Virus genome (UHGV): UHGV-0269933
Direction: 5' to 3' (one strand)
DNA length: 13,616 bases
DNA from: a virus
In this document: in pieces, positions 1 through 11,276 of the stretch
Position numbering within the stretch: position 1 is the stretch's first letter
Layout: the number at the start of each line of letters is the position of its first letter
Made by a program: the position numbers and the translations under genes
The notes under the pieces: generated by a model
Database searches by the model: none
What the model saw: the letters and a program-made list of their open reading frames with translations, nothing else
What the model was told of the DNA's origin: nothing

Positions 1-25
1 TACTAATCAGTTAAGTGTTTGTTTT

Positions 26-63
26 AAAAGGCGCTACTCGGCATGGGGAAGCGCCTTTTTTAT
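26..63 (+). repeat. attL-type direct repeat (38 bp), also a Rho-independent terminator hairpin
   Basis: aaaaggcgctactcggcatggggaagcgccttttttat is identical to 11239..11276. GGCGCT...AGCGCC stem followed by a T-run. Confidence 0.8.
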
Positions 64-68
64 TAAAT

Positions 69-2307: not shown

Positions 2308-2694
2308 TCAGCCAATCAACGTGCTTTTCCCGCCGCGAGCCTGCTGGCGCACACGCTCGGCCTTAAGGCAAAGAGATGCTTCAGGCTTAGCAGGTACAGG
2401 AACATGGCAGGTTTCAGAGGTCCGGGGAATGTTATTGATCCATTCAATAACTTCACTCAGATACCACGCCTTGCGCCCCTCAGTGACCTGGACGCGTACT
2501 GGAAACTCACCTCGCGCTTCGAGATTCAGCAATGTACGGCGGCTCAGCGTGGTGAGTTCTATGACCTGATTCATATCAACCAGGCGCTCACTGACGTTCA
2601 TTTTGTCTGCCATCTCCAGCAGTTCACCCACCACTGGATCCGGATAGAGAGCATTGGCGGTGGCCATCAGGCTGTTATTTTTATCTTGCATCAT
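2308..2694 (-). CDS. AlpA/Vis-family HTH DNA-binding protein (second copy, with N- and C-terminal extensions)
   Basis: Core MNQVIELTTLSRRTLLNLEARGEFPVRVQVTEGRKAWYLSEVIEWIN fits the phage AlpA/excisionase-type HTH pattern. Start ATGATG at 2694/2691 with AAGGAG SD; the 144-aa track ORF start is an unsupported upstream extension. Confidence 0.55.
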   Translation of the reverse strand: MMQDKNNSLMATANALYPDPVVGELLEMADKMNVSERLVDMNQVIELTTLSRRTLLNLEARGEFPVRVQVTEGRKAWYLSEVIEWINNIPRTSETCHVPVPAKPEASLCLKAERVRQQARGGKSTLIG

Positions 2695-2701
2695 AATCTC
2701 C

Positions 2702-3043
2702 TTACACCAGTGCCAGTGGCTGAACAGAAATACCAGAGCCAACGAACGCTGCTACTTTTGCAGAAAGCGTGGTTACATCATCAGGCCAGTTAAGGGCATC
2801 AACATTCAGCACGCCAGCTTTGTAGACCTGAGCATGTGTCTGGCTTGCGGTATCAACAGCAAAGCAAGATACATAGACAGCCTGCCCGGCATGCGCCCCA
2901 TCCCAGACCACCAAAGCCCCATTGGTAGCATCCTGCATAAGTGGAGTCAGCGCGGGAATAACGCCCTTTGCTCCAGCGAAGATACCCAGAGTTGTCACCA
3001 GCGCTTCAGTACCGGCCGCCAGTTCAGTGTAATGCGTCGTCAT
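2702..3043 (-). CDS. Phage head decoration protein, lambda gpD-like
   Basis: 113 aa; ALTPLMQDATNGALVVWDG...VYKAG...AAFVGSGISV aligns with lambda gpD (AMTPLMLDTSSRKLVAWDG...FYKSG...TAFAGTAISIV). AAGGAG SD; translationally coupled to upstream capsid gene. Confidence 0.75.
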   Translation of the reverse strand: MTTHYTELAAGTEALVTTLGIFAGAKGVIPALTPLMQDATNGALVVWDGAHAGQAVYVSCFAVDTASQTHAQVYKAGVLNVDALNWPDDVTTLSAKVAAFVGSGISVQPLALV

Positions 3044-3052
3044 GATTACTCC

Positions 3053-4093
3053 TTAGGCCACGCGAACGGTGACAAAACGGTTGATACGGGCCGGGATAGG
3101 CTGCGGTGCGGAGTGGGTCTGAACGTACTCAATAGCTGGGTCGCCAGGAACAATGTAGTTCTTTGGCGCCAGCTCAGCTTTGGTAATACCCATACGGATG
3201 AGCTCTGGATCCTGAATTCCGCCGTAGGCCACAATGCCCTGCAGGGCGGTGTTTCCCAGCACCATCAAATCAGGATCGAGGAAGTGCTTTTCGGTGCCGT
3301 CTTCGTCGGTATAGCGACCGCTATAAACCACAATAGCCACATCGCCCATATAGCCTTTAAAGCTCACTGAATCGCCCAGGTCTTTAAGTGCTGTTTCAAG
3401 CTGTGCGTTGGAGCCGCGGCGCGTGTCGAGTACATCTTTAATCGCTTTGAAAGAACGATATTTTTTCCAGACGTTCCCGCCCATAATGATGATATTGGTT
3501 ACGCCTTCACTCAGCTCTGAATAGGTTTCAATATCGTCATTTGGATCAAACGTCGTTTTATCTTTACCTGACCAGGCAGCGCCACCAGCCTGAGTGATTA
3601 TATTCTGGGATTTGATATTCCAGTCCAGCTCATAACGCTCGATCCCTTCCCCCTCAATAATATTTTTCCCGGTAGTTACAGCCTGAACAGCCAGCCATTC
3701 AATACGCGCACGAATAGCAATAGACTGTTTGAGGATTGACTGTTTTACCTTGATATTGCGGGTATCAAGCGTGCTGTATTGATCAGGAGTAACACCAGCA
3801 GGACGAACAGCCAGTTTGTTAGGGTCAATGTTGCTCTTTGGTTTCATGTAGCCAGGACGGATAGACTTGGACTCATATCCCTCATCACGCGCCACCTTAC
3901 TACCCACCATAGGCGAACAGAACGCCGCGATTGGAATATTTGGGTCGTCGATAGTGTCCAGGATGATATCGCGCGTTTCAAAAGTAACTGCGCGGGTAAA
4001 GAATAAATCAGTGAACAGGGTTTTTAGTTGCTTCTGAATATCCTCAGCGCTAACAACCCGAACCAGCGCCGCAGGTGAATATAAATCTGGCAT
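3053..4093 (-). CDS. Major capsid protein, lambda gpE-like
   Basis: 346 aa, full-length collinear similarity to lambda gpE (341 aa): PGYMKPK..., ITQAGGAAWSGKDKTTFDPNDDIETY..., FRSFKAIKDVLDTRRGSNAQLETALKDLG...YMGDVAIVVYSG...MVLGNT...YGGIQD...GDPA... SD GAGG upstream of ATG. Confidence 0.9.
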   Translation of the reverse strand: MPDLYSPAALVRVVSAEDIQKQLKTLFTDLFFTRAVTFETRDIILDTIDDPNIPIAAFCSPMVGSKVARDEGYESKSIRPGYMKPKSNIDPNKLAVRPAGVTPDQYSTLDTRNIKVKQSILKQSIAIRARIEWLAVQAVTTGKNIIEGEGIERYELDWNIKSQNIITQAGGAAWSGKDKTTFDPNDDIETYSELSEGVTNIIIMGGNVWKKYRSFKAIKDVLDTRRGSNAQLETALKDLGDSVSFKGYMGDVAIVVYSGRYTDEDGTEKHFLDPDLMVLGNTALQGIVAYGGIQDPELIRMGITKAELAPKNYIVPGDPAIEYVQTHSAPQPIPARINRFVTVRVA

Positions 4094-4301
4094 ATATTAC
4101 CTCAGTAAAATAAATAGAGCGTTCATCACAAAAATAATGTTAACACTGACAAACACAGAATGATTGAATGCAATGATGTGCAATAGAGTGCAATAATGTA
4201 TAAAGTTAATTCACGGTGATATGGCCCGCTAAATATCTGTTAATGTCCTCACTGTTATTTCCTCCAAATAACATCGTTCGTTAAAAATCCATGTTTTCCC
4301 A

Positions 4302-4331
4302 AGCGGGTCTGGTTGCAGCCCGCTTTTTTTT
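4302..4331 (+). terminator. Rho-independent terminator on + strand (hairpin + T8) with no annotated + strand gene upstream
   Basis: agcgggtctggttgcagcccgct stem-loop followed by tttttttt. Lies in the leader region upstream of the capsid gene. Confidence 0.45.
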
Positions 4332-4366
4332 CGTCTTTCGCAAAATTATGGATCGGCAAAATGAGT

Positions 4367-4646
4367 GGTGAAAATCACCCTACCCACAGCTTTAAAATTA
4401 AAAAATATCCTTTTAAGTGTTCACCCGTTCACCTTTGCGAATTTCTTAATTAAATTCATGTAGTTATAGGGTGAATACTACTCTTTCAGGTATTCACTAG
4501 TGTTCACCCTACCCTTCACCCTTTAGGGCAAAAAACAATCAAAAGGTGAACAGGTGAATACTTGGTGAATACTTAATAAATAAGTGTCCACCCCTTAACA
4601 CTCTGTTATTAATAGAATTTTAAACAGGGTGAATACTGGTGAACAC
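4367..4646. repeat. Iteron cluster of P4 ori/crr type (TGTTCACC / GTATTCACC), ~12 copies in both orientations
   Basis: TGTTCACC at 4418, 4426, 4501; GGTGAACA/GGTGAATAC at 4470, 4545, 4553, 4564, 4628, 4638; variants at 4490, 4513, 4585; GGTGAAAATCACC palindrome at 4367. Matches the P4 type I iteron motif bound by alpha (recalled). Confidence 0.7.
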
Positions 4647-4659
4647 TTTATCTATAACT

Positions 4660-5361
4660 TTACTCTACCCCTTCATTCTCAGTAGTGATTGCACATGATG
4701 GCATCCAGTCGCCAGAATCATCATGCAGGGTTACGTTAGAGCGTATGCCATGTTTGGTTTTCCGCTTCTGGTATTCCTTCCCATACTCAACCATTGCGCC
4801 AGGCATATCTGTACCGAACCGCATCAGTGAGACAGGCTTACTCAGGCCATTGGCTCTCATGTATGCCAGATAGGCGTGATACAGGTACTTGCGCGGGCTG
4901 AATGGCACTATCTCGGCATTACCGATAAACATCCCGTCACACACTACCGACGCCATCAGGTAGCCGCAGAAGTCCACCAGCGAATCACCTTCACGCTTGA
5001 TCGCCAGAGCCTCCTCTGATTTCTGCTGCTCATACAATAACCGTCTGGCTTCGTCCTGGTCTGCAAAACGTGTAAGCAGATGGCGGATAACTACAGCCAG
5101 TTCCCCTTCTATTTTCTCTGCCAGCATCGAGTCTCGCTCGTTTTCTGGTACAACCTCCGAGAAATTGAAAATAACCCGGCGCCGCGAAATCCCCCCGCTA
5201 CGGTCGCTGAATGTCATAGCATTGTTGTTTACCGCCAGCACCACCGCCGGAATACGGGTTGAATATGGTGCTTTATGTTTAGGATCGATAGACACCTTGT
5301 CACCACCAGTTATGGCCTTAATACCTGCACCATCGCCAGCGTACCGGGTCATATCAGGCAT
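4660..5361 (-). CDS. P4 alpha-type primase/helicase C-terminal (iteron-binding) domain homolog, stand-alone/truncated
   Basis: 233 aa beginning near the SF3-helicase arginine-finger region (AVVLAVNNNAMTFSDRSGGISRRRVIFNF). No Walker A/B or primase domain. Located immediately upstream of the TGTTCACC iterons, as the alpha 3' end is in P4. Confidence 0.55.
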   Translation of the reverse strand: MPDMTRYAGDGAGIKAITGGDKVSIDPKHKAPYSTRIPAVVLAVNNNAMTFSDRSGGISRRRVIFNFSEVVPENERDSMLAEKIEGELAVVIRHLLTRFADQDEARRLLYEQQKSEEALAIKREGDSLVDFCGYLMASVVCDGMFIGNAEIVPFSPRKYLYHAYLAYMRANGLSKPVSLMRFGTDMPGAMVEYGKEYQKRKTKHGIRSNVTLHDDSGDWMPSCAITTENEGVE

Positions 5362-11195: not shown

Positions 11196-11213
11196 AAATA
11201 CGGCATGAACTAA
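11196..11213 (+). other. fis: Last six codons of fis (K-Y-G-M-N-stop) at the island/chromosome junction
   Basis: aaa tac ggc atg aac taa encodes the conserved Fis C-terminus. Stop lies 85 bp upstream of the yhdJ ATG. Sequence upstream is integrase leader, not fis. Confidence 0.5.
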
Positions 11214-11238
11214 TTCAGGTTAGCTAAATGCTTGATTA

Positions 11239-11276
11239 AAAAGGCGCTACTCGGCATGGGGAAGCGCCTTTTTTAT
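11239..11276 (+). terminator. attR-type direct repeat, the fis Rho-independent terminator
   Basis: Identical to 26..63. GC-rich hairpin followed by a T6 run, upstream of yhdJ. Confidence 0.8.

Follow-up and report, generated by a model that had tools for sequence, protein, structure and literature searches.

The window analysed here, a stretch of 13,616 nucleotides (nt) of the virus genome UHGV-0269933, carries on its - strand the major capsid gene of a phage satellite, and the gap in front of this gene contains the element that we describe. At positions 4238-4331 we identified what is predicted to be a stand-alone + strand gene for a non-coding RNA of ~78 nt, lying within the capsid module of the satellite and without annotation so far (Table 1). 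In the following, "forward" denotes the capsid orientation, i.e. the - strand of the window, and the anti-capsid strand is its + strand. The region was compared with 183 loci, which reduce to 103 distinct regions upstream of the capsid gene; the counts of promoter motif and terminator orientation refer to 79 distinct upstream regions, and the column-level conservation of the -10 element was read from an alignment of 23 sequences of close relatives. The layout of the gap is the same in all lineages whose capsid identity is at least 70%; in the capsid orientation it consists of an A-run and a GC hairpin, a spacer of ~100-130 nt, four to five phased TTGCA-like repeats, a conserved TGnTAnnAT, a Shine-Dalgarno (SD) sequence and the capsid ATG.

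The predicted gene ends in an intrinsic terminator, where the window reads AAGCGGGTCTGGTTGCAGCCCGC followed by T8 (4301-4331), and the hairpin is present in both the minimum free energy (MFE) and the centroid folds, bearing out the strong + strand terminator reported by an earlier reading made without database searches (the sequence-only reading). A generic terminator scan did not list this hairpin, probably owing to the bulged T in its stem. A canonical terminator in the + (anti-capsid) orientation is found in 70 of the 79 regions. One in the capsid orientation is found in 10, of which four are the same hairpin working both ways, and of the other six, five are a second, forward terminator of the upstream gene, placed in front. 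The stem pairs compensate each other (pair 78/100 is AU in 18 sequences and GC in 5, pair 79/99 GC in 21 and AU in 2), with 99.5% of the cells of the helix paired, and in 14 of the 24 distinct sequences the top pair is U.G, whose counterpart on the opposite strand would be A.C. The homology between loci ends right past the A/T-run of the hairpin, which thus marks the edge of the capsid module. As also stated by the sequence-only reading, no + strand open reading frame (ORF) precedes the terminator: there is none of at least 40 amino acids (aa) between 4038 and 4312, and the nearest ones (3779-4006 and 3867-4037) lie antisense within the capsid gene.

At the other end of the predicted gene, the sequence at 4238-4246 has the features of a sigma-70 extended -10 element (TG at -15/-14 and TAnnnT from -12 to -7). 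Among the 23 aligned relatives the TG, T-12 and A-11 are invariant and T-7 nearly so, one T at -18 is invariant or nearly invariant, and positions -13 and -10 to -8 vary freely. In 72 of the 79 regions the + strand has the pattern TGnTAnnnT at a distance of 131-147 nt (119 in one locus) from the capsid ATG, compared with 3 of 79 for the other (capsid) strand and a mean of 15.9 (maximum 25) of 79 in shuffled sequences. The promoter-like hexamers that had been pointed out near the repeats could not be confirmed, and the conserved + strand element lies further along. Taken with the terminator orientation (70/79), the conservation of the -10 element (72/79) supports, as a prediction, the short + strand transcript ending at 4301-4331 that had been proposed.

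The predicted RNA is made up of a 5'-terminal hairpin (hairpin 1), a spacer of ~27 nt and the terminator with its U8. Hairpin 1 begins 5-7 nt past the -10 element, and its stem covaries (GUUAU/AUAAC, GUCGC/GCGAC, GUCGU/AUGAC, GCUU/AAGC) around a loop in which CUCC never changes across the aligned relatives. A covariance model, R1, was fitted to 26 sequences (24 distinct), in which 90.5% of the cells are paired, against 29-61% in slid controls, and nine pairs show double changes, against 3.1 +/- 1.4 in shuffles (0/500). R1 recovers the RNA in all relatives with a capsid at least 88% identical, and misses the versions of E. coli, Serratia, Edwardsiella and EcCICFT073, whose RNA bodies differ. 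The whole of 4094-4340 (247 nt) folds no better than shuffles on either strand (z = -0.46), so that the structural signal is confined to the two hairpins. No ORF is conserved on either strand of the region across the relatives. The small ORFs tried were one of 7 aa starting with GTG after GGAGG (- strand), one of 5 aa and a + strand one of 37 aa in locus L006, and one of 9 aa in Scandinavium; none is conserved, and a type I toxin-antitoxin interpretation was dropped for this reason. In the window and nine related loci no Rfam family, the C4/CI family included, matches at its gathering threshold, apart from one tRNA; the best hits below threshold are eukaryotic small nucleolar RNA and microRNA models and L20_leader (22 bits, threshold 58.7).

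Table 1. Features of the capsid module and its upstream region (window coordinates).
Feature	Position	Strand	Description
Extended -10 TGTTAATGT	4238..4246	+	TG at 4238-4239, hexamer TAATGT at 4241-4246; putative promoter
Predicted small RNA, ~78 nt	~4254..4331	+	Predicted start ~7-8 nt past the -10; 3' end in the U-run
Hairpin 1 (5' hairpin)	4253..4273	+	8-bp A/U-rich stem; loop CCUCC at 4261-4265
Seed block 1 UUAUUUCCUCCA	4255..4266	+	5' arm and loop; complements Nu3 mRNA UGGAGGAAAUA, SD through A of AUG
Seed block 2 CGUUCGUUAA	4275..4284	+	Complement (9/10) of Nu3 mRNA -35 to -26 (UUAACAAACG), collinear with block 1
Intrinsic terminator	4301..4331	+	Stem AAGCGGG(U)CUG / CAGCCCGCUU, loop GUUG, U8
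Capsid-operon extended -10 TGTTAACAT	4137..4145	-	Conserved GTGnTAnnAT from 4146 to 4137, TG at 4145-4144; putative promoter
Four direct repeats, 10-bp period	4169..4203		- strand reads TTATAC, TTGCAC, TTGCAC, TTGCAT
Major capsid protein gene (lambda gpE family)	3053..4093	-	Pfam PF03864, E = 8e-45; PHROG 29; heads the divergent operon
Head decoration protein gene (lambda gpD family)	2702..3043	-	PHROG 49; PF02924 in orthologous loci
AlpA/excisionase-family regulator gene	2308..2742	-	PHROG 2790; PF05930 in orthologues; same operon; candidate repeat binder

The 5' part of the predicted RNA is complementary to the start region of a helper gene, Nu3. Nu3 is the head-scaffold protein of lambdoid phages, read from an internal in-frame start in the protease gene C. 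We checked this internal start to be in frame in the helper. The profile PHROG 8399 ("head scaffolding protein") is matched by the Nu3 product of the E. coli helper from residue 1 on (1-130 of 131) and by that of the L305 helper over positions 7-131; the Nu3 region of the E. coli helper is 100% identical to phage lambda 5296-5416. Block 1 of the complementarity is a 10-nt exact match (blastn-short), extending to 11 nt against helpers of the L326/L333 type, and block 2 follows in the same order. The forward strand of satellites of the window type reads TTAAC(G/A)AACG-N8-TGGAGGAAATAAC, and their helpers have TTAACAAACG-N15-TGGAGGAAATATG, the resemblance between the two being restricted to positions -35 to +1 of Nu3. 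For the two-block duplex of the window RNA with Nu3 of the L326 helper we calculated a free energy (dG) of -21.0, a value that one shuffle in 500 attains. Within the window itself no start region is conspicuous as a target of the RNA, and a BLAST search of its reverse complement against named phages returned nothing, the query being too short for BLAST.

Many relatives (L305-L307, L311-L319, L323-L356) are inserted inside a lambdoid prophage's major capsid gene, E, so that helper E is divided into an N-terminal piece (84-91 aa) and a C-terminal one (254 aa), and these satellites match the helper-embedded PICIs (phage-inducible chromosomal islands) of PMC10111431. The embedded satellites thus provide natural satellite/helper pairs, in which each RNA can be compared with its own helper. 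Across ten such pairs the RNA seed tracks the Nu3 start region of its own helper, and the cognate RNA/Nu3 duplexes have a mean dG of -15.1 kcal/mol, as low a value being given by 0 of 157,824 derangements of these phylogenetically related pairs. The z-scores relative to shuffled RNAs are negative in 15 of 15 pairs (mean -2.4). The changes are matched on the two sides, as in GGAGGAAC of the RNA with GUUCCUCC of the helper, UCAGGAGU with ACUCCUGA in L335, GGAGGAACGAUG with UGUUCCUCC in L327, GGAGGAAGCAUG with GCUUUCCUCC in L336, and GGAGGAAAUAUG with UAUUUCCUCC. We observe, along with the conserved elements and covarying stems, a complementarity that itself covaries with the cognate helper.

Other lineages present different versions of this complementarity. 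In E. coli, the L012 type is found in 366 of 5,426 complete genomes, with an RNA body that is almost invariant, and the reverse complement of this RNA corresponds to TAAATCCCG joined to ACCAAAGAGA. These two segments flank the SD-AUG of lambda Nu3 on either side, the 19 nt in the middle being absent. In a genome of 48.5 kb, a collinear 9+10 match of this kind is estimated to arise by chance with a probability of ~1e-5. The seed stretches of the E. coli-type RNA include UUUGGU and GGGAUUUA. E. coli IAI39 (NC_011750.1, ~540,447-540,669) is one carrier of the E. coli type, and the region is also present in Kluyvera georgiana ATCC 51603. In the L006 type, also from E. coli, the RNA pairs over 14 of 14 positions with the start region of helper E (-8 to +6) and over 15 of 17 with the D-E intergenic region. 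The forward strand of L006 resembles this intergenic region minus the hairpin, collinearly, and keeps a dead ATG-TCT start. In L305-L307 the RNA spacer AGUUUAAAUUCUUCGU forms 15 contiguous base pairs with codons 3-8 of helper D, ~0.013 perfect matches of 13 nt of this kind being expected in the 21-kb L305 locus, and the D-like and Nu3-like blocks are not in the helper order. Among the 26-28 start regions per locus, the best paired is that of helper D in the L305 type and that of helper E in the L006 type, values that shuffled RNAs reach in 2/300 and 3/300 cases, respectively.

The capsid operon has a putative extended -10 element of its own on the - strand, from which the start of the capsid mRNA is predicted near 4130. 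This start and that of the small RNA (~4254) would be ~120 bp apart and divergent, with no overlap between the RNA and the capsid leader; the suggestion of the sequence-only reading that the RNA runs antisense to the capsid promoter and leader is thus not upheld. The repeats that it had noticed are real, with TGCAA at 4169, 4179 and 4189 and a degenerate fourth unit, TATAA, at 4199, all at an exact 10-bp spacing. The pattern TTGCAYN4TTGCAY (at most one mismatch) is found at four places in the window where 0.39 would be expected, a count that none of 200 shuffles attains. The repeats are kept in every relative, with lineage variants (e.g. TTAGAC/TTGGGT/TTGTGC in Serratia). That they belong to the RNA or its promoter is not supported; they lie between the two promoters as a phased operator, which is predicted to be shared by both. 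Relative to the predicted capsid mRNA start their centres fall near -41, -51, -61 and -71, where activators that replace a -35 element typically bind. AlpA/excisionase-type proteins bind direct repeats one helical turn apart. As, moreover, AlpA activates PICI genes (PMC6092414), we propose, purely by inference, the AlpA/excisionase-family protein of the same operon as the one binding these repeats. Two other candidates in this region were discarded: the + strand TATAAA at 4199-4204 as a -10 element, which is the degenerate fourth repeat, and a site of the P2 Ogr/P4 delta type (TGT-N12-ACA, one copy at ~4148-4165), which has the wrong spacing to the capsid ATG and of which one is expected by chance.

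Sequences similar to the operator are also found elsewhere. On the + strand of the window, TTGCACATGATGGCAT and TTGCATGTATTTGCAC occur at 4688-4710 and 1027-1042, the former being an inverted copy inside the end of the primase fragment, 83% complementary to 4162-4184; they could be extra sites for the same regulator, or chance matches. Near both ends of L305 (~3060-3090 and 14465-14500) there are paired TTGTATTGCA motifs, 12 bp apart, that share the ATTGCA core of the operator, which hints that one AlpA/excisionase-type protein could serve both excision and control of the capsid promoter. Arrays of TTGCAC, with 3 to 13 units at a 10-bp period, are present in many unrelated viral contigs (L185-L304), and a scan of viral contigs with TTGCACN4TTGCACN4TTGCA returned mostly unrelated arrays. 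Several of the arrays are located ~120-190 nt upstream of genes that resemble small terminase subunits by N-terminal sequence alone. The TTGCAC array may be a widespread late-operon or packaging signal, or a case of convergence. In EcCICFT073 (L184 209-462, from E. coli CFT073) a forward terminator after perC is followed by a reverse-oriented terminator, and the TTGCA/TGCAA motifs upstream of c1498-c1499 are arranged differently; when the temperature is raised from 23 to 37 degrees C, the c1498-c1501 mRNA is reported to increase in the absence of phage induction (PMC12890032).

In our view, the RNA is best explained as a trans-antisense regulator of helper head-assembly genes, directed at Nu3 in most lineages and, in some, at D or E in addition to it or in its place. 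We give this explanation as a whole, from the stand-alone RNA gene to the targeting of Nu3, a probability of roughly 0.55, and within it the transcription of the RNA, its pairing in vivo and its effect on the helper are predictions from sequence. The RNA gene would be transcribed from its extended -10 element, back to back with the capsid-decoration-AlpA operon of the satellite, and the weak A/U-rich hairpin would display CCUCC in its loop for pairing. Once the helper turns on its late genes, the RNA would pair with the SD and AUG region of Nu3 and, judging from how such RNAs usually work, would block translation of the scaffold or trigger cleavage of the late mRNA. A lower scaffold supply would then disturb assembly of the helper head while the satellite makes its own capsid and decoration proteins. 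The sequence-only reading had suggested that the RNA could control late-gene expression, and a helper scaffold gene as target in trans appears more likely than the late operon of the satellite itself.

Several other explanations have to be considered. There may be no functional RNA at all, the Nu3-, D- and E-like snippets being decaying relics of captured helper DNA and the hairpin serving to insulate the upstream replication genes or origin from stray divergent transcription that leaves the capsid operator region. The capture of late genes by these satellites has been reported (PMC10111431), the L006 type is collinear with the helper D-E intergenic region, minus the hairpin and with its dead ATG-TCT start, and the fold of the region as a whole is not significant. 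However, decay would not preserve the TG/TA/T pattern, the covarying hairpin with its invariant loop and the terminator across lineages with unrelated flanks. Moreover, the homology with the helper does not extend beyond the start region, the D-like and Nu3-like blocks of the L305 type are out of helper order, and the cognate matching implies that the helper continues to be tracked, so we regard the relic explanation as unlikely. Quite unlikely, too, is a cis-antisense RNA of the kind known from lambda OOP, P22 sar or FinP, which would cover the promoter or leader of the capsid operon, or read-through transcripts, and would regulate late genes of the satellite itself. The RNA is always linked to the capsid module, and base pairing is possible between its CCUCC loop and the SD GAGG of the capsid gene (8 of 9 positions in the window), but this pairing stops at the SD core and shows no covariation (by-eye comparison of L003 and L109), the predicted capsid mRNA starts near 4130, ~120 nt off and beyond the operator, and the tracking of the helper Nu3 start would be left unexplained. 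Window-type satellites have no forward terminator between the upstream gene and the region, and read-through transcripts would thus hold a perfect complement of the RNA, with GGAGG in the loop of the mirrored hairpin; in two E. coli lineages, however, a forward terminator precedes the unit. Control in cis is possible only for such read-through transcripts from upstream satellite genes.

The RNA could also be real and act mainly on host or satellite mRNAs with a strong GGAGG ribosome-binding site (RBS), or on a protein able to bind its CCUCC loop, and fit Nu3 only by coincidence. CCUCC pairs with any strong SD, and some cognate pairs match at the SD core only. This version is distinctly improbable, as the second collinear block, the covariation of the SD-AUG spacer and the independent designs in E. 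coli all point to helper head genes, and the start regions of the window itself offer no better target. The functional strand might finally be the forward one, on which the region would imitate the Nu3 start as a decoy within a read-through mRNA, or as a DNA site titrating a factor or ribosomes. Hairpin 1 is as stable on either strand, and the imitation keeps the GGAGG Shine-Dalgarno in its loop, but both the U-run terminator and the promoter pattern are + strand-specific, and neither a conserved forward ORF nor a forward promoter is present in the region. The E. coli type, furthermore, loses exactly the SD-AUG core and keeps the flanks, which fits an antisense clamp and not a decoy. The forward strand is altogether a very improbable candidate. 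Since none of these alternatives accounts at once for the strand-specific promoter and terminator, the covarying hairpin with an invariant loop and the cognate matching, a small RNA acting against the helper is the best-supported explanation.

A number of observations weigh against this small RNA acting on the helper. No helper is assigned to this fis-integrated satellite, the matching helper type is absent from the named-phage collection, and for the window type the duplex energy ranks only moderately among all helper windows. The promoter has no recognisable -35 element, a generic promoter scan did not flag the element at 4238-4246, and by folding energies hairpin 1 is equally stable on both strands. 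The cognate pairs L328 and L330 are unremarkable, and the RNA variants UUCCCUCC fit the Nu3 of their own helper less well. The complementarity could have been inherited with captured helper DNA rather than selected, and the L006 type illustrates this best. In EcCICFT073, which has been studied experimentally, the reverse terminator is present, but we saw no clear complementarity to head genes of lambda, and deleting its capsid or its decoration homologue did not relieve interference (PMC6092414).

The element that carries the RNA gene is a complete satellite of ~11.2 kb, a Gram-negative PICI of the EcCICFT073 type integrated at fis. The attachment (att) core of fis-type PICIs, for which a consensus is available (PMC10111431), is present as TACGGCATGAACTAA at 11199-11213, and each of the two island junctions (window 1-65 and 11199-11275) has a copy of the fis terminator hairpin, AAAAGGCGCTACTCGGCATGGGGAAGCGCCTTTTTT. 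As both junctions are inside the window, the island measures ~11.2 kb from one att copy to the other, and yhdJ and acrS are host genes beyond it. On the - strand the order of genes is integrase, a DUF6387 protein, a repressor-like protein, an AAA_25 helicase and a primase fragment, followed by P4-type iterons, the lambda-E-type capsid, the lambda-D-type decoration protein and the AlpA-family regulator, and then by insertion sequence (IS) and tail-gene debris and an Abi_C gene. The island has the size (10-20 kb), the integrase and att sites, the AlpA-family gene, the replication gene with iterons downstream and the unidirectional genes of a PICI, and its layout matches that of EcCICFT073, where c1499 and c1500 are the capsid and decoration homologues (PMC6092414). 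The module formed by capsid, decoration, AlpA and Nu1-like genes is kept in relatives behind very different replication modules.

Dense P4-type iterons (GGTGAACA / GGTGAATACT and their complements, in both orientations) occupy 4360-4660, directly downstream of the truncated primase gene, and this array is probably the origin of the satellite. The iteron block is ~72-81% identical to sequences adjoining primase genes in ~660 complete E. coli genomes. A role of the RNA in origin activation, suggested by its pointing at the iterons, was dropped, because in relatives other genes separate the unit from the origin. Of the primase gene (4660-5361) only a 233-aa C-terminal Pox_D5 part is left. The packaging end (944-2308) also looks degraded, with a transposase fragment (1269-1658) and a tail-assembly fragment (1696-1935) where relatives carry a Nu1/Rpp-like gene after the AlpA-family gene, and the Nu1/Rpp gene is absent from this copy. 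Because of the truncated primase and the missing Nu1/Rpp gene, this copy of the satellite may be defective.

The closest functional parallel is SviR of the Vibrio cholerae PLE (bioRxiv 10.1101/2022.04.08.487710), the only satellite small RNA acting on a helper that we found in the literature searched. Like the RNA proposed here, SviR is a satellite-encoded trans-acting small RNA, conserved in its family, which lowers translation of a helper structural protein by base pairing. However, the PLE satellite, its helper ICP1 and their host are unrelated to those considered here, and SviR was shown experimentally, whereas the window RNA is predicted, has a scaffold gene as its proposed target and resembles an antisense copy of the start region of that target. 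The CI RNA of P4 and the C4 RNAs of P1 and P7 (Rfam C4) are likewise short structured satellite or phage RNAs whose loops pair with RBS or leader sequences and so control phage genes, and CI/seqA homologues occur elsewhere in some of these satellites (PMC10111431). CI RNA arises by processing of a longer transcript and targets transcripts of its own element, whereas the window unit has its own predicted promoter and terminator and matches a helper gene. Lambda OOP, P22 sar and FinP of the F plasmid share with it a length of ~70-80 nt and two hairpins, and FinP and sar also an anti-RBS loop, but these RNAs overlap their target gene on the opposite strand, whereas here the predicted adjacent mRNA is not overlapped and the matching target is in the helper genome.

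An attack on the scaffold or capsid supply of the helper, by an element with capsid-related genes of its own, is also known from P4 Sid, SaPI CpmA/CpmB and Ccm, and PLE CapR. Those effectors are proteins (external scaffolds, scaffold mimics, a transcriptional repressor of the helper capsid gene), whereas the effector proposed here is an RNA acting on translation. The EcCICFT073-type and the fis-integrated or helper-embedded PICIs (PMC6092414, PMC6739421, PMC10111431) share with the window the gene order, the att site, capsid E, decoration D and AlpA, and EcCICFT073 has the same reverse terminator upstream of c1498-c1499. These papers describe activation by AlpA and redirection of packaging by Rpp. 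Neither they nor PMC11773190 mention an RNA gene, a promoter or a terminator in front of the capsid homologue, and full-text literature searches for PICI with small RNA, and for Nu3 with antisense and satellite, gave nothing relevant.

Enterobacterial PICIs are common, and they influence gene transfer and the dynamics between phages and bacteria; what they are known to use against helpers are proteins (Rpp, capsid remodelling). The RNA gene family predicted here becomes newly available for genome annotation. If the proposal is true, a scaffold-directed RNA would be a new layer in the conflict between satellite and helper, and it could help to explain why capsid and decoration homologues whose deletion showed no phenotype are retained. 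It would also be a reprogrammable determinant of specificity, in which the seed sequence predicts the helper that is targeted. More tentatively, and with less confidence than we have in the targeting itself, enterobacterial PICIs may carry a modular anti-helper RNA cassette, an antisense copy of head-gene start regions that is retuned as the satellite changes helper, by which head assembly, and possibly capsid size or composition, would be redirected to the satellite. Such a cassette would be the RNA-based counterpart of P4 Sid or SaPI CpmB.

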